The notes under the pieces are model-generated. The model made no database searches and had not been told where the DNA came from. It was given only the letters and a program-made list of their open reading frames with translations. DNA of 64,000 nt from Phycisphaerae bacterium (lineage in GTDB: Bacteria > Planctomycetota > Phycisphaerae > UBA1845): contig CAXXGO010000006.1 in NCBI GenBank assembly GCA_963666835.2, positions 288,001 through 352,000 on the forward strand, in the 5' to 3' direction. Position numbers and translations under genes: made by a program. Position 1 is the first letter of the stretch. Each line of letters starts with the position of its first letter. Positions 31,890 to 59,580 of the stretch are shown one piece after another.

Positions 31890-33893
31890 GCGCGGGTGCC
31901 CCATCCATTCCGGCGGGTACCGGCCCGGAACAGCCGGGGCCAAGTCCCCGCCGGAATGGGTGGGGGGAAAGCGCCGGTAAGCCGGTGAGGAGTAGTGGAT
32001 GAGAGAGCCATACGGTGAAGGAATAGCGAACCACACCGACCCCGAGTCATACTGTGGTGTCCGCAAGGGCATGGCGGGAGCGTTGACAGGGGCACGTGCG
32101 GGCCGGCCATTGAGCCGTGAAAGCCTTTTACTCCGGAGTGCCGACGCCGTCCCCCAAGGCGGAAGGCAACACCGGAGGGCGTCGTTAACGCGAGACGCCT
32201 TTCGGACTCCGCGCGGTCTTAGAACCCGAGCACGCACGGAAACTCCTCACGCGGAACCCGGGAGATCCCGCGTTCGGCCTCGAACATGGCATCGAGGTCC
32301 GCAGTGTGAATCCATAGGAGCACGACACTGATGCACGGGCGCGGGAAGTCGGACAGGCCCATAGTACCGAAGAAGACTGCGAACAACGGTGATCCCCCGG
32401 CGGGGAGGTCGTCCGCGGAGCAGTTGGAGGAAAGGGGCCTGGCCAAGGGCAACTCGATTCGACACAACAGGCACCGTACGCAGAGCCGGGATCGTCTGCA
32501 AAGCGGGTTGGATCGGGTACGACAGGCAGCGGTAAAGGATAAGGATTTACAGTTCACCACGCTTTGGCACCATGTCTATGATGTCGCTCGCCTCCGGGAG
32601 GCGTACTTGAGCCTCAAGCATGCTTCGGCACCGGGGATGGACGGCATGACATGGGAGGCGTACGGCAGGGACCTAGAAGAACACCTCTTGGATCTGTCGG
32701 CACGTCTACAGCGCGGAGCGTACCGAGCGAGGCCGGTCAAGCGGGTCTACATTCCGAAACCCGATGGACGGCAGAGACCAATAGGGATTCCCGTGTTGGA
32801 AGACAAGATCGTCCAACGGGCGATGACCGATGTGCTCTCGGCTGTCTACGAGGCAGACTTCCTCGGGTTCTCCTACGGATTTCGACCAGGACGGGACGCC
32901 CATCAGGCGTTAAGTGCCCTGACTGTCGGCATCGAGAGGAAGAAGGTGAATTGGGTGCTGGATGCAGACATTCGTGGATTCTTCGATGCCATAGACCACG
33001 ATTGGCTGATCAAGTTCGTCGAGCACCGGATCGCAGACCAGCGTGTCGTGCGTCACGTGAAGAAGTGGCTGAACGCCGGCGTGCTGGAGGACGGGTGTCG
33101 AAGGGACACGGAGACGGGGACGCCGCAGGGGGGCAGTATCAGCCCGCTATTGGCGAACATCTATCTCCATTACGCCTTCGACTTGTGGGCCCGCCAATGG
33201 CGACGGACGCAAGCTCACGGAGATGTGATTATCGTGAGATATGCGGACGACTTCGTGGTGGGATTTCAACAGCGAGAGGATGCCGAGCGGTTTCGGGATG
33301 AGCTGACGGATCGCCTCCGGAAGTTCAAGCTGGAGCTACATGCGGACAAGACTCGTCTGATTGAGTTCGGCCGTTTTGCGTCGACCAATCGCAAGCGAGA
33401 AGGCCGCGGCAAACCGGCGACCTTCGAGTTTCTGGGTTTTCGCCACATCTGTGGCAAGACCCGGCGTGGGAGGTTCACGGTACTACGGCAGACTGTCGCG
33501 AAACGACGGCGTGCGAAGCTCAAAGCGATTAAGCAAGAGCTTCGGCGACGTATGCATGCCCCCGTCCGAGAGGTGGGCGCGTATTTGCGGGCGGTGGTTC
33601 GCGGGTACTATCAGTATTATGCGGTACCGCGGAACTACCCGGCCTTAACGGCATTTCGGGATGAGGTTGTCCGTCTTTGGCGCTGGACGCTCCGGCGTCG
33701 CAGCGAGAAGACTCGGATTACCTGGGCCCGCATGAACCGTTTGGCCAAGCAGTGGATACCTGCTCCCAAAATCCTACATCCTTACCCCGACCGACACCTG
33801 GCCGTTATGACCCAAGGCAGGAGCCCAGTGCGGTAGTCCCGCACGCTGGGATCTGTGGAGGGGGTCCCGGGTAACCGGGATTCCTACTCCGAC
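31890..33893 (+). mobile_element. Group II intron (bacterial class E-like), apparently complete
   Basis: RT/maturase ORF; domain V GAGCCCAGTGCG..CGCACGCTGGGATC (33821-33853); domain VI with bulged A, ending CCGAC at 33893; domain I motifs such as GTTGACAGGGG..GCCATTGAGCCG; 5' end GCGCG inferred from the rejoined flanks. Confidence 0.9.
32331..33836 (+). CDS. ltrA: Group II intron reverse transcriptase/maturase, no HNH endonuclease domain
   Basis: APGMDG, IPKPDGRQRPIGIP, SYGFRPGR, GTPQGGSISPLLANIYL, RYADD, X domain. Confidence 0.97.
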   Translation: MHGRGKSDRPIVPKKTANNGDPPAGRSSAEQLEERGLAKGNSIRHNRHRTQSRDRLQSGLDRVRQAAVKDKDLQFTTLWHHVYDVARLREAYLSLKHASAPGMDGMTWEAYGRDLEEHLLDLSARLQRGAYRARPVKRVYIPKPDGRQRPIGIPVLEDKIVQRAMTDVLSAVYEADFLGFSYGFRPGRDAHQALSALTVGIERKKVNWVLDADIRGFFDAIDHDWLIKFVEHRIADQRVVRHVKKWLNAGVLEDGCRRDTETGTPQGGSISPLLANIYLHYAFDLWARQWRRTQAHGDVIIVRYADDFVVGFQQREDAERFRDELTDRLRKFKLELHADKTRLIEFGRFASTNRKREGRGKPATFEFLGFRHICGKTRRGRFTVLRQTVAKRRRAKLKAIKQELRRRMHAPVREVGAYLRAVVRGYYQYYAVPRNYPALTAFRDEVVRLWRWTLRRRSEKTRITWARMNRLAKQWIPAPKILHPYPDRHLAVMTQGRSPVR

Positions 33894-49279: not shown

Positions 49280-50428
49280 TCAACACGGCGCGGTCAGCAT
49301 AACGCCCGGCAGGATTACGTCGAGGAAGCCGTCGGTCTGCTTGGCCGGTTTGAACTCGACGCTCACGCTGTCGAGGCCGGCGCCGATGATCTCGATCAGG
49401 TCTTGTTGAATCTGCCCGATCCCCTGGTTGTAGGCCTTGTTGAGATGCGCGATCTCGGCGACATCGCAACCGATGATCCGCGCGGCCGTGGCATCGGCGG
49501 CGGCAAGATCGGTGCTGGCTAAGACCAGCCAATCCCCGAGGCGGTCCCGCATATCCACCGTGTCACCCCACCAGCCGGGAAATACGTGCGGCCCGTTGCC
49601 CTCGCAGCAGATGGACGCGTCGATCACAGTCAGGTCCGGTTCCACTGCGGCCACAATGTCGAGAAAGCACTGTTCAATGCCCCCCGGCGAGTTGTGGAGG
49701 TCGGAACGGAACTGCATGCCGCCGTATTGATTGACCGAAGTGACTCCCACGAAGTTCTTCAGCGACCCGGTCATTTGCGTCCAGCGATGGGTCTTGATCA
49801 CCGGAATCGAAATCACGCGGTCGGCGCGGGTCAGGTGGCTGGAGACCTTGATCGTGTCGAGCCCGGTGTACGGAGAGGGCACCGCAACCCAGGAGGGTGA
49901 CTCGCCGGTCAGGCACGAGAGTGTCACCTTGCCGGCATAAGAAGCGTTAAGCCGCTCGACCTCGGCCGTCATAGTCGCCGACGAAGCCAGCGTCGTCAGG
50001 TCATCCCAGGAGAACTTGGGTACTTGTGCTCCTTCTCCGATAATGACCTCCGCCGCTCGCACCTGCAGGCACCTTTCCGCCACGGCGATGACGATGTCGG
50101 GCTTGGTCGAGTCGCCCGCGCGAACGGTGTCGTGGCAGACCATGCCAACGCCGCCGAAGTTCGGCTTGATAAACACCGTCTCGCCCTCGTGAACGACCGA
50201 TTCGATCCCGCCGATCGCATCCAACGCCTCGCAGACCATCGTCCCGAGATTTTGGCCGCGGATAATGGCTACTTCAGCTGGGTTCAAATACGGTGTTTCC
50301 GGCACAACGGGCGCGGCCGCGCGAAAGGCGCCGCACCCGGTCAACAGTTGACCGCCACCGACGGCGTAACCAAGGCGCACGCCATGCTTCAAGAAACCCC
50401 GCCGCGTCATTTTATTGGGGACAGCCAC
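49280..50428 (-). CDS. DUF362 family protein with Tat signal
   Basis: MTRRGFLK, VFIKPN, IPVIKTH..SLKNFVG, D.AAADA. Confidence 0.88.
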   Translation of the reverse strand: MAVPNKMTRRGFLKHGVRLGYAVGGGQLLTGCGAFRAAAPVVPETPYLNPAEVAIIRGQNLGTMVCEALDAIGGIESVVHEGETVFIKPNFGGVGMVCHDTVRAGDSTKPDIVIAVAERCLQVRAAEVIIGEGAQVPKFSWDDLTTLASSATMTAEVERLNASYAGKVTLSCLTGESPSWVAVPSPYTGLDTIKVSSHLTRADRVISIPVIKTHRWTQMTGSLKNFVGVTSVNQYGGMQFRSDLHNSPGGIEQCFLDIVAAVEPDLTVIDASICCEGNGPHVFPGWWGDTVDMRDRLGDWLVLASTDLAAADATAARIIGCDVAEIAHLNKAYNQGIGQIQQDLIEIIGAGLDSVSVEFKPAKQTDGFLDVILPGVMLTAPC

Positions 50429-50791
50429 CTATTTCCTCGCCTCCCGCTCGTCTGTTTCACATCTTCCATTGCAGCGCCTGGCCGCAGAGGACCGACGTCG
50501 CGTCAGTCCGACTTCTTGCTTCAGGATACCAGGTCGCGCGGCCCTGCCTAGACCGGCACGTCGCAGTGCCCAAGCCTGCTCCAATATGCGTCCCATCGCC
50601 CCGCACTCAGCCCTCCTATCTAACGACGGTCCCCGCCGGACTGCCCGATTCACAACCTGATACATGTCCTCTCCCATTGCCGTTCGAAGTCGCCGGGGCG
50701 TGTCGGAAGCCCGCCATAACCTGCAACTCTGCCGGAGAAGACCCTCCCCGTTAATCTGTTTGGGGCGGGCTGAAGTTCAGGAATCGGATGA

Positions 50792-50834
50792 TTGTCAAGA
50801 AACTGCTTGACAAGGCCGATTAGTCGTGTAGATT
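50792..50834 (+). promoter_or_regulatory. Sigma70 promoter overlapped by a perfect palindromic operator
   Basis: TTGTCAAG-N6-CTTGACAA; TTGACA (50807-50812) then 16 nt then TAGATT. Confidence 0.7.
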
Positions 50835-50880
50835 GTTAGATGAGTGGTGGAGATTACGTTCACTCACGAGAGGTAGGGTA

Positions 50881-50970
50881 ATGATGGGACTTGGTAGCAG
50901 ATTCTACACTGCGGCACTTGACGCGGAAGCCGATACGGCAACGCGCGCAGGGAGGTGGCCCACAGGGTAA
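50881..50970 (+). CDS. Putative 29-aa leader peptide MMGLGSRFYTAALDAEADTATRAGRWPTG
   Basis: GAGAGG SD 7 nt upstream; its 3' end is complementary to the downstream terminator arm. Confidence 0.6.
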   Translation: MMGLGSRFYTAALDAEADTATRAGRWPTG

Positions 50971-50995
50971 CGCTAAGTCCTAAGATGGATAGCTC

Positions 50996-51033
50996 AGCCC
51001 TGCGGCCACCGACGGTTGCAGGGCTTTTTGTTT
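50996..51033 (+). terminator. Intrinsic terminator of a putative attenuator
   Basis: AGCCCTGCGGCC-ACCGAC-GGTTGCAGGGCT (12 bp with 2 GU) followed by TTTTGTTT. Confidence 0.8.
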
Positions 51034-51241
51034 GCGCGATTCTCTGCTTTCGTTCTTCTTGGCCGTATGGCCCGGTGACTTGGCTCCTGGACTTGCTTTG
51101 GGCGACGGGTGAGCCCAGTGGAGACGGTGCGCACACACAGCCATGGCGGCAATCGCACGGGTCACCGCGAAGTGGGCCGAGCCAATCATTGGAGTCGTAT
51201 TGACCGGTAGCCAGTTTGGCCGAACCGCGTAGAAGACCATT

Positions 51242-51314
51242 GGGAGCGTAGCTCAATTGGGAGAGCACCTGCCCCGCAAGCAGGAAGTTGAGGGTTCGAG
51301 TCCCTCCGCCTCCA
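51242..51314 (+). tRNA. tRNA-Ala(CGC), non-canonical (C33, A4-C69 mismatch, no encoded CCA)
   Basis: Cloverleaf: GGGAGCG/CGCCTCC-A with G3:U70, D arm GCTC/GAGC, anticodon arm CCTGC-CCCGCAA-GCAGG, T arm GAGGG-TTCGAGT-CCCTC. Confidence 0.88.
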
Positions 51315-51548
51315 TTATGGACGCCCAACGGCACGATTGTGGTTGAGCAGATGGTGACGAGAGCGCAAAGGCCGCCCATCTTCTTGCCCGGGCTCGCCCC
51401 GGGGCGAATGGACGTGGCCAATGTGCTGAGGCTGGCCAAGACCCCGCGGCGTGGCCGAGGCAGCGAAGAACGAAGGCGTAGTAACGGATCAACTGAACTG
51501 AGATGACAAGAACACGCGTGGAATCCGACTTGTGGGTTGCGCGCCATA

Positions 51549-51995
51549 ATGAACAACGGGAGGTGCACAACGCACTACAAGGCACATTGTGAAGTCTGCG
51601 GACATGGGTTCAGATTCAGCTTCGTCGACAACCAACTGAATGACTCAGCGTATGCCCACTGTGATTGGTGCGGTCAAACAGCTCTGTTCGACCTCTCCAG
51701 GCTCCCGTCGCACATTAGTCATCTGGAGTACCGAGTTTGCAGGGATCACGAGGAGCACATTGACAATTGCAGTTGCGGAGGCAGATTCCGCCGAGAGGCA
51801 GAGCCAAGGTGCCCAAAATGCGAGAATGTGATCAGCATGGCCGTTTTCGAAGAACTTGTACTGACTCACGTAGGCCCACAGGGAGAGTGGAACCGCGTCG
51901 GCGGGCCGTGGGATTGGCGTCGAGCCGGAGGGCAGTTCTGCATGATAGTTGAAGGGCGTGTCGTGCGTGATATCTGGCGATCCGTAGATCCGTAA
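51549..51995 (+). CDS. Cys-rich putative zinc-binding hypothetical protein
   Basis: CEVCG, CDWCG, CSCGG, CPKC. Confidence 0.75.
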   Translation: MNNGRCTTHYKAHCEVCGHGFRFSFVDNQLNDSAYAHCDWCGQTALFDLSRLPSHISHLEYRVCRDHEEHIDNCSCGGRFRREAEPRCPKCENVISMAVFEELVLTHVGPQGEWNRVGGPWDWRRAGGQFCMIVEGRVVRDIWRSVDP

Positions 51996-52015
51996 GTGAA
52001 GATACTGGAGAGACT

Positions 52016-52876
52016 ATGCTGGTCGAGCTGGCCATAGGTGATGCATACGGTGCTGGGTTTGAGTATGTGGACGCAAGGGTAGTACGGTCGTGCAACGATC
52101 TGACTCGGTACGTCGCACATCCGCGGCATCGCCGCAAACCCGGGACCTATACCGATGACACACAGATGAGCTTGGCGCTGGCGGAGCTGATCGTGTCCGG
52201 GGACGCGTGGACGCGCGAGAACATCGCGGAGAGGTTCGTGGACGTGTTCAAGCGGGACCCGAGAGACGGGTACGCCGGCAGGTTCTACAAGTTCCTGAAG
52301 CATGTGACGGACGGGAGCCAGTTTCTGGCCGAGATTAGGCCCAACAGCGACAAGAGCGGAGGAGCCATGCGGGCCGCGCCGGTAGGCGTGTACGCGCATG
52401 TGGATGAAGTCATTGACAGGAGTTCTCTGCAGGCAAGCATTACTCACGATACGCGTGATGGTCGCAACGCAGCAGTGGCGGCGGCGTTGATGGCACACTA
52501 CTTCATCCACGATCTTGGCCCGAAGGCTGGGTTGGGGGCGTTTGTCAAGCGGCACGTGCCGGGCCAATGGGATGAACCCTGGCGAGGCCGCGTCGGCTCG
52601 AAAGGCTGGATGAGCGTGCGGGCAGCGATAACGGCCGTGTCGCAGGCAGAGTGCATGAGCAAACTTCTTAGACGCTGCGTCTCCTTCACGGGTGATACGG
52701 ATACGGTGGCCGCGATCGCACTCGCGGCCGGCGCGTGTTGCACCGAAATCGCCCAGGATCTTCCGAATCATCTGTATTCGAAGCTCGAGAAAGGCAAGTA
52801 CGGGCGGGAGTATCTGGTAGACCTGGACAAGCGCCTGCTGGCTAAACGAAGGCGGAAGAAGGTGTCACCCGACTAG
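52016..52876 (+). CDS. ADP-ribosylglycohydrolase (ARH/DraG family)
   Basis: AIGDAYG, YTDDTQMS, GGAMRAAP, GDTDTVAAI. Confidence 0.93.
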   Translation: MLVELAIGDAYGAGFEYVDARVVRSCNDLTRYVAHPRHRRKPGTYTDDTQMSLALAELIVSGDAWTRENIAERFVDVFKRDPRDGYAGRFYKFLKHVTDGSQFLAEIRPNSDKSGGAMRAAPVGVYAHVDEVIDRSSLQASITHDTRDGRNAAVAAALMAHYFIHDLGPKAGLGAFVKRHVPGQWDEPWRGRVGSKGWMSVRAAITAVSQAECMSKLLRRCVSFTGDTDTVAAIALAAGACCTEIAQDLPNHLYSKLEKGKYGREYLVDLDKRLLAKRRRKKVSPD

Positions 52877-53288
52877 GGCCGACGCCGAGGGGGGCGGTGC
52901 GGAAGGGGCCGCCCCGGACAGCTCCCGAGCCGGAGGCCGAGGATCACCTCAACCTATGAAATCCTTCCACAGATTCGGCGGAAGAACCTTTAATCTAAGC
53001 CTCGTACGCCACGTTTCATAGTCCGGTAACGTCAGGGCGAGCATCTGCCGGGCGCCGTCCTCGGCATGCTCCGCGCGCAGTCGAAGTCCTATGTGCCAGG
53101 TCGGTGGCATGAGGTAGTAGCCCACAACTCCGCCAAAAAAGACTCCCGACCCCCTTCTTCTTCCCCCTTCTTCCCTCGACTTTTCCCTTCCCTGGACGCG
53201 GGGTTTTTGTTGCTTTAGAGTTGGAGACGAGACTCCGGCGCAGTTGAGGAGCAACGGCCCGGCACCGGGGCGATAAGAGGGTCAGCCA

Positions 53289-53993
53289 ATGACGTCGCAA
53301 CAACGCAACGCGGTTATCCTCCTTTCAGGCGGTTTGGACTCGGCCACCGTTGCGGCGATCGCCCGCGAACAAGGGTTCGCACTCTACGCCCTGTCGTTTC
53401 AGTACGGGCAGCGGCATGCCCTGGAGATGGAGGCGGCCACGCGAGTCGCACAGGCCAACGCGGTCGCCCGGCACGCGGTGCAGACCATCGATCTACGCGC
53501 TTTCGGCGGCTCCGCGTTGACGGATTCCATCGCGGTACCGAAGTCCTCCGACCTCTCCGGAATCGGCAGCGGAATCCCGGTCACCTACGTGCCGGCCCGC
53601 AATACGATCTTCCTGTCGTTCGCCCTCGCCTACGCCGAGACCGTCGGCGCCCGGGATATCTTTATCGGGGTCAACGCCGTAGACTACTCCGGCTATCCCG
53701 ACTGCCGCCCGGAGTTCATCGCCGCGTTCCAGCGCGTCGCTCAACTGGCCACCAAGGCCGGCGCCGAAGGAACCGAGTTCGTGATCCACGCTCCCCTGGT
53801 CGCGATGAGCAAAGCCGAGATCATCCGCGAGGGAATGCGGCTAGGGGTAGATTACGGTCTGACGCATAGCTGCTACGACCCCACGGCAGACGGACTGGCG
53901 TGCGGTCATTGCGATAGCTGCCTGCTCCGTAAGGAGGGGTTCCGCCAAGCCGGAGCGACCGATCCCGTACCATACGCATCAGAAAACCTCTGA
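53289..53993 (+). CDS. queC: 7-cyano-7-deazaguanine synthase
   Basis: [40 protein letters not shown]. Confidence 0.97.
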
Positions 53994-54226
53994 CACCGCC
54001 CCGCGAAGGACCGTTCAACTTCGCGCTGCCGCTTCGCGGCCACTTGCGCCCGATAATCGCATTCACCACTCCAACCGGCCGCCGGGCGGGCTCTCTGAAA
54101 GAGCGTCGCGGGCGATCGGTGTTTATCGGCAGTTCACAGATCCCGCGCAGGGCAAGTCGAGGCTCCCGATGATCGATAAAACCAGACGGAGAACCGCAAG
54201 CTGCTGTGTTCCCGGAGGTTTACCCG

Positions 54227-54598
54227 ATGGACGCCACTGAAATCTGCCCGCTCACGCGGGAGGCCGTTGCCGAGGTACTGTCGGCTCAGGTTCGCGATGA
54301 GACTCCGTCGCCGGAGACCGGCCAGCGGAAGACACCGCGCTGGCCATTCCCCGGAACCGTGCAGATGTGGCTAACCGACGAGCACGGTGACGAGCAGCAC
54401 CTGTTTGCCACCTGCCTCAACCTCAGTCTCAACGGCCTGGGAATGCTCTGCGAGGAGCCCTTATCCCCAGGCCAGGAGTTGCCGATCGCCATTCACCAGC
54501 CGCTTGCCAGCTTGCAGGGTCGGGCGATCGTACGGCATTGCACCGCCAACGACGCCGGCTACTACATCGGGATGGAGTTCATCTTCGAAGACGCTTGA
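54227..54598 (+). CDS. PilZ domain protein (c-di-GMP binding)
   Basis: QRKTPR (RxxxR) and NLSLNG (D/NxSxxG). Confidence 0.85.
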   Translation: MDATEICPLTREAVAEVLSAQVRDETPSPETGQRKTPRWPFPGTVQMWLTDEHGDEQHLFATCLNLSLNGLGMLCEEPLSPGQELPIAIHQPLASLQGRAIVRHCTANDAGYYIGMEFIFEDA

Positions 54599-55451: not shown

Positions 55452-55535
55452 GCCGGAGTGGCGGAATTGGCAGACGCGCGGGATTCAAAATCCCGTTCTG
55501 GCAACAGAGTGAGGGTTCGAGTCCCTCCTCCGGCA
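55452..55535 (+). tRNA. tRNA-Leu(CAA)
   Basis: GCCGGAG/CTCCGGC-A acceptor stem, CGGGA-TTCAAAA-TCCCG anticodon arm, long variable arm, TTCGAGT T loop. Confidence 0.96.
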
Positions 55536-55764
55536 GTTAACTACGCGGTTTCATCCGACCAGCGTGGCCCGTGGCAAGGGTCGGCGCAGAACCATTCCAA
55601 CGGTTGGAGGCCAGTCCGGCCTGATCGGGGAATCGCTGTGCGCATCGGCGAGTTCACTCGCATGGTGGAAAGAGACACTCACAAGTGCCGTCCGGGATGT
55701 CGATCCGGCCTGCTTATCCAACCGCCGGATTCCTGTTGAGGTGGCGGGGGTGGTAGAACGATCG

Positions 55765-57372
55765 ATGGAGCTTACCGCGGAACAACCGGCAAGGCCGGCG
55801 CGATGGAGCGTGTATCTCGTGCGCTGCGGGAACGGGGCTCTTTATACCGGGATTGCGACGGATGTGGCGCGCCGGTTGAACGAGCATCGAAACGGATGCG
55901 GTAAGGGCGCCAAGTACCTGCGCGGCAAGGGGCCGTTGCACGTGGCCTTAGAGAAGGAGATTGGTGACAAGGGTCTGGCCCTCAGCGTGGAGAACCGCAT
56001 CAAGAAACTCTCGAAGCCACGCAAAGAGGCTCTGTTAGAACAGCGCGATCTGATAGATGACATCATCGCCCGGGCCAAGGAGGATTCCGCCCGGGCACGG
56101 CAGTTGCCGAGGAACTCTACCCGGTCGAACGCCGGCCTGACCGAAACGCTGAGCCTGCGCGAGGCTCGTCGGCTGGCGTTAGCCCGGGCGGGACTGCTGA
56201 AACGGGAGTGGGCCGGGTTCCCCCAGCGGGCGACCGGGCGGGGGAAACGTGCCCGAGACGCGGCCGCGGAGGTCATTCGGCGTTTCGGGTACCTTCAACT
56301 CGATACGGTTTCAATTGCCGGGGCACGGAGTCACACAATAGTGCTGATGTCGAGGCTGGATGGGTTCGATCCGGTTCTCGGGGAGGAACTCCTCCAACCG
56401 GGGGCAAAGCTCTTCGAGTATTGGGGGCATGAGGCAAGTTGGATTCCCCTGGAGCTGTACCCCGCCTTCGCGTTTCGCCGACGCGAGTTCCGGCGGCACC
56501 CGTGGTGGGGCGACATTGTAAGCGAGCATCCTAAGATCGCGCGGAAACTCCGCCGCCGCATCCGCGAGGAAGGTCCCCTCCGTTCGGTCGACATGGAGGG
56601 GTGCGGGAGTCGCGGCTGGTGGGATCTGAAAACCACTAAACGCATCGCGACCGCCCTGTGGTCCAGCGGGGAACTGGCCATCCGCGAGCGGAAGAACTTC
56701 CAACGAACCTACGACCTGACCGAGCGAGTTATCCCCGATGATGTGCGCGGCGAGTCACTCTCCACGCGGAATGGCCTCGAGGTGCTGCTGCTCAAAGCAC
56801 TCGATGGACACGGGTGGGCTACAACGGCGACCCTGGCGGCCACTTGGCGATTGCGAAACCGCAAGGAGGAGATCACGGCCGCGTTACGGCGCTTGGTCGA
56901 GAAGGGCCGGGTCATAGGCTGCGGGCTGGAGAACCACGGCGGACGCCCGACTCCGGGGTGGATTCGCCCGGAGGATCGAGAGCTGGCCGCGCGGCTGGAG
57001 ACCGTTCGCCCCCGGAGCGATCGCGGCGTGGTCTTGTCCCCGTTCGATCCCGTGCTGTGGGATCGAGCCCGCGTCCAGCGTCTCTTCGGCTTTGAACAAG
57101 TCCTCGAGGTGTTTAAGCCCGCGAAGCAGAGGGTTTACGGCTACTACTGCATGCCGGTCCTGGCCGGCGAACGACTGGCGGCCCGCTTCGACTTCAAAGC
57201 CGACCGCAAGAAAGGGACGTTGCAGGTCCTGTCGTGCCACTTCGAAGGCACTGACTCCGCCCGCCCGGCCACAACCGCGGACGGCGAAGCGGCCCGCACA
57301 GCATTACATCGCTACGCCGACGCCCTCGAGTTGAAACCGACGTGCGTACCTCCGCTCGTAAGCGGCGCATAA
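55765..57372 (+). CDS. Fusion of a GIY-YIG (YhbQ/UPF0213-like) nuclease and a YcaQ/AlkZ-like crosslink DNA glycosylase
   Basis: WSVYLVRC..LYTGIATDVARRLNEH..GAKY, then LQLDT, FEYWGHEAS, LSPFDP..WDR, RVYGYY in one open frame. Confidence 0.85.
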   Translation: MELTAEQPARPARWSVYLVRCGNGALYTGIATDVARRLNEHRNGCGKGAKYLRGKGPLHVALEKEIGDKGLALSVENRIKKLSKPRKEALLEQRDLIDDIIARAKEDSARARQLPRNSTRSNAGLTETLSLREARRLALARAGLLKREWAGFPQRATGRGKRARDAAAEVIRRFGYLQLDTVSIAGARSHTIVLMSRLDGFDPVLGEELLQPGAKLFEYWGHEASWIPLELYPAFAFRRREFRRHPWWGDIVSEHPKIARKLRRRIREEGPLRSVDMEGCGSRGWWDLKTTKRIATALWSSGELAIRERKNFQRTYDLTERVIPDDVRGESLSTRNGLEVLLLKALDGHGWATTATLAATWRLRNRKEEITAALRRLVEKGRVIGCGLENHGGRPTPGWIRPEDRELAARLETVRPRSDRGVVLSPFDPVLWDRARVQRLFGFEQVLEVFKPAKQRVYGYYCMPVLAGERLAARFDFKADRKKGTLQVLSCHFEGTDSARPATTADGEAARTALHRYADALELKPTCVPPLVSGA

Positions 57373-57419
57373 GCGGCATGCGTCTCCCGCAATTCTTGAC
57401 CGGTGTGCGAGCGGTGGAC

Positions 57420-57633
57420 GTGTCCCCCTGCTATCGAGCAATGCGAGAACCGTGTACGTGTGCCACTGCTCTCGAGCAGTGCTCGTGCCGTCGCCAGAGC
57501 CGTCGCTCAGCGCGATCCCCCATGGCATCCCGTTGCGCCGTCGAGAATACTGCCGCGCCACAAACCACGACGTGTGCCACTGCTCTTGAGCAATGCGAGA
57601 GCCGTGTACGTGTGCCACTGCTCTTGAGCAGTG
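57420..57633 (+). repeat. Tandem REP family A copies upstream of the RAYT
   Basis: GTGTGCCACTGCTCTTGAGCAGTG-like units at 57420 (degenerate), 57458, 57572, 57610. Dispersed copies at 40995, 42565, 54710, 58212, 61571, 63622. Confidence 0.9.
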
Positions 57634-57647
57634 TTATAGTACCGGCA

Positions 57648-58202
57648 ATGAGGACCTGCTATCGAAAGACCCGCGGAAACTGGAATGAATCGGGGCACGC
57701 TCACTTCCTCACATACTCGTGCCACCGTCGGCTCCCTCTGTTGTCCCGCGATCGCGTTCGACAATGGGTTGTCGACGCGCTCGAGCGTACGCGAAAGGAA
57801 CTCAACGTCGCCCTCTGGGCGTACGTAATCATGCCGGAACACGTGCACGTGCTCCTGCATCCCCGCGCACCTCAATATGAGATGCGGCGGATTCTCGTGA
57901 CGCTCAAACAACCAGTGGCCAAGGCGGCTCGCAAGTGGCTCGAAGAGAATAACCACACCAATTGGCTGCGGACCCTGACCGTGGTTTACCCCTCGCGTAC
58001 GGCCTTCCGGTTCTGGCAGCCGGGCGGTGGATTCGATCACAACGTTTTTCGGGAAAGGACCGTGTCGGCCGTAGTCGATTACATTCACGCCAACCCGGTT
58101 CGCCGTGATCTCGTGGATGAGCCGACCCAGTGGGAATGGTCGAGCGCACGCTTCTGGGATGGAAGCTCGAACGTACGTCTACAAATGGACGACCCGTTCT
58201 GA
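57648..58202 (+). mobile_element. REP-associated tyrosine transposase (RAYT, IS200/IS605 HUH superfamily)
   Basis: HFLTYSC, YVIMPEHVH (HUH), FWQ..FDH, YIHANPV (catalytic Tyr), WEWSS; flanked by inverted REP-A copies; TGTTATAGT extended -10 7 nt before the ATG. Confidence 0.93.
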
Positions 58203-58395
58203 TTGGAGAAGCACTGCTCAAGAGCAGTGGCACACGTTGGGGGCCCGCGGCGGCCCCCCACTATCCTGACCATCGTTCACCCGCGCGGTGCGACGACTGT
58301 CGAGATCCACGGTGCTACAGCGCTCCCGGGACAGTTATCGGACGACGCTTCCCAGCTTGAGCAAGCCTGGAAAGGGGGTAATGGAACCCTGCAAT

Positions 58396-58422
58396 GGGGT
58401 AAGATCGGGTTGATCTTACCCC
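58396..58422. promoter_or_regulatory. Perfect 11-bp inverted repeat upstream of the fic gene (candidate operator)
   Basis: GGGGTAAGATC-N5-GATCTTACCCC plus an extra half site ATCTTACC at 58433. Confidence 0.55.
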
Positions 58423-58527
58423 GTTTAGGCGTATCTTACCGCGTTTGGAGGTTCTCTGCGCCGATCTGCCCGTAATCTACCTTGGGTTTCGGCGCGGGGG
58501 CAGGATCTCGGGGAGGCGAGTACAGAC

Positions 58528-59580
58528 GTGCGATCACTCACAACTGAGTTCCTTGGACGGCTCACCCTCACAGTCGAGCAGGCCTCGACGTTGAACCGCA
58601 TCGGTGAGTACCGGGGCAGGCAAGACCTGTTCGCGCGGCAGACGCCGGAAACCCTGGAATCGCTCCAGCAGGTGGCGGTCATCGAATCGAGTGAATCGTC
58701 AAACCGTATAGAAGGCGTGACCGCCCCGCACGACCGCATCAAAGCCCTGGTCCTCAAGTCCACCACGCCGAAGGACCGATCCGAGCAGGAAATCGCCGGC
58801 TACCGCGACGTCCTCGCGCTCATCCACGAGTCAGCTCGGCACATGCCGCTTACGGTCAACGTCATCCTGCAACTGCACAAGACGCTCTGCCGCTACATGC
58901 CCAACGAGGGAGGGCGATGGAAAGCGACCTCCAACGACATCGTGGAGAGAAACGCAGACGGCTCAATCAAGCGCGTCTGCTTCAAGCCGCTCAGCCCGGT
59001 GGCCACGCCACCGGCGATGGAGGCCCTCGCCATCGCGTACAAAGATGCGATCGAAGGGCAGCGCAAGGAACCGTTGGTCATCGTCCCTCTGGCGATCCTC
59101 GACTTCCTCTGCATCCACCCGTTCAGCGACGGTAACGGGCGCGTCTCCAGGTTGTTGACGCTCCTGTTGCTGTGCCGTTTCGACTATCAGGTGGGGCGTT
59201 ACATCAGCATGGAGCGCATCTTCGAGGAATCGAAGGAAACCTATTACGAGACTCTCGAACGCAGCTCCGCAGGATGGCACGACGGTGAACACGACCCGGC
59301 CCCGTGGCTGGACTACTTCTGGGGGGTGATGCTCCGCGCGTACCGCGAATTCGAGGATCGCGTCGGCACCATCGGGCTGGGTAAGGGATCAAAGACCGAA
59401 CAAGTCCGGCAAATCGTCAGCCGCCGGATCGGCCCCTTCTCCATCTCGGACATCGAGGCCGACTGCATCGGCGTAAGCCGCGATATGATTCGCATCGTGC
59501 TGAGGCAGTTGCGAGACGAGGGAGTCATCGTGCTGCAAGGGAAGGGGCGGGGGGCGAAGTGGATACGAAAAGAAGAATAG
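58528..59580 (+). CDS. Fic family protein with C-terminal wHTH
   Basis: HPFSDGNGRVSR Fic motif; SNRIEG N-terminal inhibitory-like motif; GKGRGAKW wing. Confidence 0.93.
   Translation: MRSLTTEFLGRLTLTVEQASTLNRIGEYRGRQDLFARQTPETLESLQQVAVIESSESSNRIEGVTAPHDRIKALVLKSTTPKDRSEQEIAGYRDVLALIHESARHMPLTVNVILQLHKTLCRYMPNEGGRWKATSNDIVERNADGSIKRVCFKPLSPVATPPAMEALAIAYKDAIEGQRKEPLVIVPLAILDFLCIHPFSDGNGRVSRLLTLLLLCRFDYQVGRYISMERIFEESKETYYETLERSSAGWHDGEHDPAPWLDYFWGVMLRAYREFEDRVGTIGLGKGSKTEQVRQIVSRRIGPFSISDIEADCIGVSRDMIRIVLRQLRDEGVIVLQGKGRGAKWIRKEE

Follow-up and report, generated by a model that had tools for sequence, protein, structure and literature searches.

A stretch of 64,000 nucleotides (nt) from a Phycisphaerae bacterium (assembly GCA_963666835.2, contig CAXXGO010000006.1, positions 288,001 to 352,000; hereafter the window, whose numbering we use) carries, ahead of a second copy of the alanine transfer RNA (tRNA) gene tRNA-Ala(CGC), a short leader open reading frame (ORF) whose end can pair with an arm of the terminator behind it. 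We regard this switch as very probably a transcription attenuator operated by the ribosome. Sequence comparisons place it in a conserved Planctomycetota family of leader-ORF terminator/antiterminator switches, and on these and on folding models we propose, with a probability of roughly 0.7, that the family senses general ribosome stalling, not one amino acid, with spare tRNA as an output. The family is real and apparently undescribed; the class of mechanism is already known. The literature searched contains no description of the switch family or of attenuator-gated tRNA arrays, with the proviso that supplements and subscription papers may list members, chiefly of the amino-acid types, and the available portions of PMC4833913, PMC8632094 and PMC2965389 do not describe the family.

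A first-pass annotation, made from the letters alone, had proposed that a translation-sensing attenuator controls a unit of tRNA, structured RNA and ADP-ribosylglycohydrolase (ARH), and every part that it listed (promoter, Shine–Dalgarno sequence, 29-codon ORF, terminator, tRNA-Ala(CGC), Cys-rich ORF and ARH gene) is present where it was placed, all on the forward strand. The promoter (50807 to 50834; −35 TTGACA, −10 TAGATT, 16-nt gap) is the sole match to the sigma-70 consensus in 49500 to 54500, and is weak on its own because 1.2 matches are expected there by chance. A Shine–Dalgarno-like GAGGT (50870 to 50874) lies 6 nt upstream of the ATG of the leader (50881 to 50970), which ends in Trp-Pro-Thr-Gly-stop. 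Leader codons 25 to 29 (50954 to 50967) form the 5′ strand of the antiterminator, and its 3′ strand, 50998 to 51010, is also an arm of the intrinsic terminator (50996 to 51033), a 12-pair stem at 50996 to 51025 followed by a U-run. This pairing, pointed out in the annotation, is also what folding predicts for nascent RNA until the 3′ arm of the terminator is complete, but 37 of 2,000 dinucleotide shuffles match its strength (p ~0.02), which is modest evidence for the locus taken alone. The Rfam cis-regulatory models (T-box, riboswitch) do not match the switch. Contigs from two public studies, one possibly the source sample, cover everything from the promoter to the ARH gene, without any difference in one case and with a single one in the other.

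Much of the evidence is comparative. A DNA query (50800 to 51240) matched 5 of 60 relatives, essentially in the terminator only; in all five, an ORF ending x-x-Pro-stop lies 26 to 31 nt upstream and is complementary to the 5′ arm of the terminator. So as not to select on the antiterminator, we then scanned GTDB with a pattern for the terminator only, which returned at least 117 loci. Among the matches listed, the antiterminator/stop motif lies upstream in 12/12 Planctomycetota loci (three of them already among the first five) versus 1 of 104 scored loci from outside the phylum (one locus had no upstream DNA), and mean duplex energies are −23.3 and −11.7 kcal/mol, respectively. The motif accompanies 8 of 9 terminator-pattern matches in metagenomes; in viral contigs, the 3′ arm of the terminator (full hairpin) occurs in 0/120 of the matches listed. 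The exact terminator pattern was too strict, finding three cases over 401 genomes of the class. A first covariance model, built from 18 sequences, gave 45 matches at ≥45 bits, spread over 41 of 151 genomes from the order and counting the training sequences; a second, at E ≤ 0.001, reached 44 of 101 genomes from the taxonomic family and 44 of 151 from the phylum, many of its weak matches being plain terminators. BLAST found no paralogous leader in the own genome, where a strict hairpin scan was insensitive (15 terminators only). A second candidate switch lies there outside the window (L302, G000:C6:868282-868379), a weaker match with a promoter-like site, a 41-codon ORF whose stop is 21 nt before a strong terminator, and an alternative pairing; it precedes a ClpA/B-like AAA ATPase gene.

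Of the 67 loci examined in detail, 51 were aligned with MAFFT, leaving out 10 loci before a citramalate-synthase-like gene (cimA type), one before serS, four without a convincing antiterminator and one duplicate. Pairing stands at 88.2% in the antiterminator, where 24 two-sided changes compare with 4.8 ± 2.0 after shuffling (0/500 shuffles); the terminator is 94.3% paired, with 38 versus 8.6 ± 2.6. The compensating changes differ from lineage to lineage, and the two mutually exclusive folds that had been suggested for the window covary across the family. In a swap test on 30 loci outside model building (22 from the taxonomic family at ≥33 bits and the top eight from the phylum), 28 had an upstream strand that paired more strongly with its own terminator arm than, on average, with the arms of the other loci (−18.0 versus −12.7 kcal/mol).

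The leader is conserved as a frame. Among the same 30 loci, 28 have an ATG ORF of at least 18 codons with its stop in the antiterminator stretch. Among 48 main-family loci (the 67 minus the 10 cimA-type loci, eight set aside, and L334, which has no stop in the strand), the ATG leader stops inside the antiterminator strand in 45; these 45 have an ATG ORF of at least 20 codons in the stop frame, compared with three and seven loci in the other frames, so the leader ORF of the first-pass annotation is itself conserved. The stop frame is open for at least 25 codons in all 48, an upstream TTGA(C/A)..TAnnnT promoter is found in 43, and the stop falls 24 to 31 nt before the terminator. An indel test on 12 leader pairs is mildly supportive (five gapless, five with multiples of three only, and two divergent pairs with other lengths). 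The peptides, of 21 to about 70 amino acids (aa), share across loci only a Gly-x-Pro ending, which the RNA pairing dictates. Most homologues end in Gly-x-Pro-stop; the stop in the window comes two codons later, as it also does in L323, L348, L354, L389 and L393-L395; several of these loci lie before tRNA or Band-7 genes. These comparisons indicate that both exclusive helices are under selection and that the leader frame is conserved and the peptide is not. They leave it very improbable that the locus is a gene for a small protein or small RNA with a constitutive terminator and a chance complementarity: the shuffle value at the window locus alone and the terminator being the equilibrium fold would allow this, but covariation, the swap and frame tests and the unconserved peptide speak against it.

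To describe how such a switch could work, we modelled the folding of emerging RNA with a ribosome footprint of 30 nt. With the RNA emerged to 51010 to 51022, the probability of the antiterminator is ~1.0 when the A site stands at codon 20 or earlier or when no ribosome is present, 0.3 to 0.6 with the A site at codons 21 to 23, and ≤0.12 at codon 24 or later; in this model the antiterminator competes in nascent RNA, as the attenuator proposal supposes. Completion of the leader would accordingly terminate transcription, and an earlier stall or failed initiation would permit read-through. A ribosome at codon 24 or beyond would cover 50954 to 50967, the terminator would fold and transcription would stop near 51030; with a stall at or before codon 20, or with no ribosome loaded, the antiterminator would form first and the polymerase would read on. 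The trigger would be slowed translation, whether from antibiotics, damage to tRNAs or ribosomes, or a block in aminoacylation. The output would be spare tRNA-Ala(CGC), together with a DUF8255 protein and the ARH, both probably recent acquisitions, on a shared transcript. Translation release after proline is slow, and the Pro-stop ending of most leaders may keep the ribosome longer on the antiterminator strand. A long leader of mixed codons suits a general sensor.

The genes behind the switch are the main guide to its signal, and translation stress is the best inference from them. In the 51 aligned loci, the first gene encodes a RimJ/L-type GNAT acetyltransferase (PF13302) in 26, a YbjN protein in five, a tRNA in seven and ARPP-1 in one; the remaining 12 are unassigned or at contig ends. 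A further 30 loci include 10 GNAT, two YbjN, four Band-7, two MATE and four amino-acid genes as well as two tRNA sets, and HNH genes follow the switch in L143, L146 and L405. Whole sets of tRNA genes stand directly behind it: six in L348/L435 (G443:C27), 14 in L404/L429 (G640:C79), and 17 with an embedded HNH gene in L405/L430 (G700:C217), where the set reaches the contig end. The annotation had suggested looking for the leader before tRNA, ARH, RtcB or TROVE genes: tRNA sets and an ARH of another subfamily do follow it, and a 539-aa ORF next to the array in L404, suspected of encoding Ro60/TROVE, has no Pfam match.

Long tRNA arrays are known in several phyla, Planctomycetes included, and Anabaena has a silent one, with an HNH gene linked to it, that translational stress switches on (both from the available part of PMC8421152, in whose main text 'attenuat' does not occur). 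The Anabaena TrcR regulon, as given in the accessible part of PMC10272220, comprises trn, two GNATs, two HNH genes, slipin, an AAA ATPase and RtcB. By gene class (spare tRNAs, GNAT, HNH, slipin/Band-7 and AAA ATPase), the overlap with the Planctomycetota genes is suggestive, and the 17 tRNAs of L405 with their embedded HNH gene resemble the HNH genes linked to the long arrays. The control differs, insofar as these papers describe it: in Anabaena a protein repressor acts on direct repeats in the promoter, in Planctomycetota an RNA leader would act as the switch; and the window has a single tRNA, not an array as in the trn operon. Induction of tRNA arrays has been worked out only in Anabaena, through that repressor, according to the same portions of PMC8421152 and PMC10272220, and an attenuator directly before 6, 14 and 17 tRNA genes, and before the same gene classes, would be a second route. 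If so, it would explain how planctomycetes switch on emergency tRNA sets, would join a translation-sensing switch to a tRNA product, closing a feedback loop on translation, and, in a phylum that has received little study, would make a specific RimJ/L-type acetyltransferase, YbjN and Band-7 proteins candidates for a role in translation stress.

Several observations weigh against a general stalling sensor of this kind. At equilibrium, the full-length RNA favours the terminator by 3.8 kcal/mol, so that read-through depends on the order of folding and the switch must be kinetic. The first alignment, of 18 nearly invariant sequences, showed no covariation, being too invariant to show any; and as related loci are not independent, the shuffle counts overstate the case. 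L334 and L353 have no stop in the antiterminator strand. Thr-ACG (2.55×), Cys, Met and Trp are enriched in 45 main-family leaders, at ~1.7 to 2.6× background, which leaves room for a specific signal. GNAT, YbjN and Band-7 are common families, and their overlap with the TrcR regulon is for that reason suggestive only; the RtcB gene of the own genome lies directly behind another gene, without such a leader. Finally, the ARH gene starts 980 nt beyond the terminator, where internal promoters of non-consensus type are possible.

A real attenuator sensing one codon or charged tRNA, alanine/GCG here or threonine/ACG throughout the family, is in our view unlikely. The first-pass annotation had raised the alanine version, since the leader has six Ala codons, two of them GCG, a count that is correct; these two (codons 11 and 15) also fall within the stall range that permits antitermination. 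Yet in the 45 leaders Ala stands at 0.97× and GCG at 1.02× background, for the window leader P(≥6 Ala) = 0.055 and P(≥2 GCG) = 0.26, and a housekeeping tRNA-Ala(CGC) exists (G000:C1:1096388); self-sensing of alanine is not supported. The threonine version draws on the ACG enrichment and on three loci of genus g52, in which a tRNA-Thr gene stands behind a Thr-rich leader. Against both versions, the codon background comes from the own genome only (relative to which Asp and Glu are depleted), the same switch precedes sets of 14 to 17 different tRNAs, and the main family has no regulatory codon run (at most four of one residue in 13).

Such runs do occur on the same scaffold. In 10 lower-scoring loci of the same geometry (L343, L346, L350-L352, L356, L359-L361 and L363), Ile-rich leaders (3.6×) precede the cimA-like gene, which in L343, the one locus tested in NCBIfam, is above the TIGR00977 cut-off; runs of Leu precede leuA-type genes (L401, L407 and L416) and runs of Phe, Trp or Tyr precede DAHP synthase (L402, L403 and L408). 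These Ile, Leu and aromatic leaders of Planctomycetota appear to be classical amino-acid attenuators, a class that comprises trp, his, leu and ilv, and their match to the textbook cases supports the view that ribosomes read the scaffold. A related leader also precedes serS (L357). The window member and the main family share this geometry but lack a cognate codon run, which is confined to the cimA, leuA-type and DAHP subgroups, and they do not stand before genes for biosynthesis or charging, the genes here being a tRNA, DUF8255 and ARH. By these features and the lack of an Rfam match, the switch is not a classical amino-acid attenuator, a T-box or a riboswitch.

The Bacillus vmlR leader is reportedly an antibiotic-responsive, ribosome-dependent attenuator. 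Listeria rli80/hflXr is likewise described, in the available part of PMC6310831, as an antibiotic-responsive ribosome-dependent transcription attenuator. The Planctomycetota switch has in common with this pair, as far as those accounts extend, a short leader ORF, exclusive terminator and antiterminator folds, read-through on stalling (here predicted) and a stress-relief gene downstream. A model of that type, in which the leader peptide arrests in response to a single ligand or class of drug and the acetyltransferase is the matching detoxifier, we consider quite unlikely. A single GNAT family is indeed the commonest cargo (26/51), MATE pumps occur twice, and the leaders have an excess of Cys, Trp and Met, but they are 21 to ~70 aa long with no common motif beyond the ending that pairing dictates, the window leader has no Arg/Lys-x-Arg/Lys motif, and cargo consisting of tRNAs alone better fits a general signal. 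Compared with what is available on rli80 and vmlR, the window leader lacks an RLR-type arrest motif, the leaders of the family are longer and unconserved, and the cargo is tRNAs, GNAT, YbjN, Band-7, HNH and ARH instead of ABCF or HflX; nor is an anti-antiterminator predicted in the Planctomycetota switch, so untranslated RNA would read through. In its proposed breadth of sensing, the switch is closer to the Escherichia coli toiL upstream ORF, where, as the accessible part of PMC12121999 proposes, ribosomes can stall at many positions and so report antibiotics of several classes; there, however, a ribosome-binding site is unmasked and Rho is involved, whereas an intrinsic terminator gates the tRNA gene in the window.

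The window tRNA (51242 to 51314; ARAGORN; Rfam 62.4 bits) combines G3:U70 and A73 with a mismatch, A4:C69, and with C33. When 279 genomes of the order were scanned with a pattern made from it and the three g52 tRNA-Thr genes, 4 matched, each time 125 to 300 nt behind the switch; its presence in these four genomes is circular, the lack of free-standing copies is not. The tRNA is identical to the g52 tRNA-Thr genes at 58 to 59 of 73 positions versus 55 to 56 of 73 for housekeeping tRNAs, a marginal difference in favour of common descent. It is likely that the window tRNA-Ala and the g52 tRNA-Thr behind the same switch form one lineage, and that tRNA identity has switched between Thr and Ala. C33 occurs also in the homologues of the window tRNA and in the only tRNA-Val(GAC) of the own genome (G000:C1:1355762-1355835), and therefore need not inactivate the window tRNA. 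A tRNA-Thr and a tRNA-Gly(GCC) behind the switch in L315 have C33 as well.

Two protein genes follow the tRNA. The Cys-rich protein (51549 to 51995; 148 aa; atlas score 0.92) is zinc-ribbon-like, with 11 Cys and 10 homologues at 33 to 63% identity, all with DUF8255 (PF26783), and its GC content at third codon positions (GC3) is 0.61 versus 0.75 to 0.77 for the neighbours. The ARH (52016 to 52876; 286 aa; PF03747 at 116.3 bits versus a cut-off of 26.2) resembles ARH3, DraG and Tri1 in that domain and in its intact TDDT(46) and GDTDT(226) motifs, and lies far below the NCBIfam cut-offs for DraG (58 versus 337 bits) and Tri1 (48 versus 490 bits). At E ≤ 1e-40, no member of its subfamily was found in 400 other genomes from the phylum; the closest kin found are in 14 viral contigs (35 to 55% identity), none with a tRNA within 3 kb. 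Relatives 28 to 36% identical are found in 11 of 60 related genomes, and plasmid and phage collections give distant matches (best 36%). An ARH of another subfamily, 34% identical to that of the window over 157 aa, follows YbjN behind the switch in one related genus, intact in L347 and broken in L342. The ARH stop codon is supplied by a 128-bp repeat (52861 to 52988) with five near-identical genome copies. ARH and DUF8255 look like acquired local passengers, and tRNA plus ARH does not appear as a conserved unit in these comparisons; of the stall-operated stress module first suggested, conservation, covariation and frame strongly support the ribosome-operated switch, the genes behind the family suggest a signal of translation stress, and the fixed tRNA–ARH pairing and alanine self-sensing find no support. 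That tRNA, DUF8255 and ARH share a transcript is suggested by their orientation and by the lack of a sigma-70 consensus match in 50835 to 54500, in a scan that does not cover other promoter types; it may end at a weak terminator-like site (53190 to 53210, +; z 0.68, not above shuffles).

It could be that the family works and the window copy is a decaying relic, with a degenerate tRNA and with DUF8255 and ARH as independent insertions expressed on their own, a possibility that we rate as decidedly slim. A4:C69 and C33, the lack of homologues among fetched loci for the spacer and the DNA after the tRNA, the ARH subfamily missing from the 400 genomes and closest to viral contigs, and the GC3 and repeat just described would all fit; so would L311, where by eye only a short GNAT-like remnant lies behind the switch. 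Against decay, nothing is broken in the promoter, the Shine–Dalgarno sequence, the leader or the two helices, the tRNA retains its Ala identity elements and anticodon and shares C33 with its homologues and tRNA-Val(GAC), the ARH motifs are preserved, three other loci have ARH or ARPP-1 behind the switch, and no downstream sequence matches the sigma-70 promoter consensus.

The structured RNA that had been placed in the unit is rejected: the spacer (51034 to 51241) folds like its shuffles (51035 to 51245, z 0.05; 51058 to 51190, z −0.53), as does the DNA beyond the tRNA (z 0.0 and 1.39), and neither has an Rfam match or a homologue among the fetched loci. At 20 distinct loci, a different RNA-like element lies downstream of the switch (for example, L336:4446-4580(-), L003:87-221(-) and L340:848-982(+)), with a near-invariant core of ~20 nt, two crossing helices of 10 to 16 pairs in which the sequence varies and pairing is kept, and usually a U-run at its end. 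It has no Rfam match, was not found in the genome of the window, and is possibly an undescribed non-coding RNA of the switch unit. In L348, L354 and L319, an extended Shine–Dalgarno-like stretch, which we take to be complementary to the 3′ end of 16S ribosomal RNA, follows shortly after the terminator and before the tRNA genes; it might stabilize the read-through RNA. In L440, the switch is followed by two GNAT genes and, at ~3.3 kb, by a gene for a Rho-like ATPase (PF00006; 3882-5087), presumably Rho itself.

Joined together, these elements would describe a translational-stress response of Planctomycetota, long tRNA arrays included, run by one portable, sequence-agnostic leader-ORF switch that reports the failure of ribosomes to reach a stop codon: an RNA counterpart of the cyanobacterial TrcR on the scaffold of amino-acid attenuators, gating a C33 tRNA lineage with a Thr/Ala identity change, ADP-ribose-removal enzymes and an undescribed structured RNA. 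We give this combined picture even odds.

Elsewhere in the window, a group II intron domain is matched at 32002 to 32226 (RF02005, 169 bits), and a fragment at 52949 to 53254 (−), suspected to be an IS200-like remnant, has no Pfam match. Farther downstream, at 55452 to 59580, a GIY-YIG/AlkZ-like frame that may be two genes follows tRNA-Leu(CAA); with an IS200-like transposase and then a Fic protein next in line, the region looks like an island at a tRNA.

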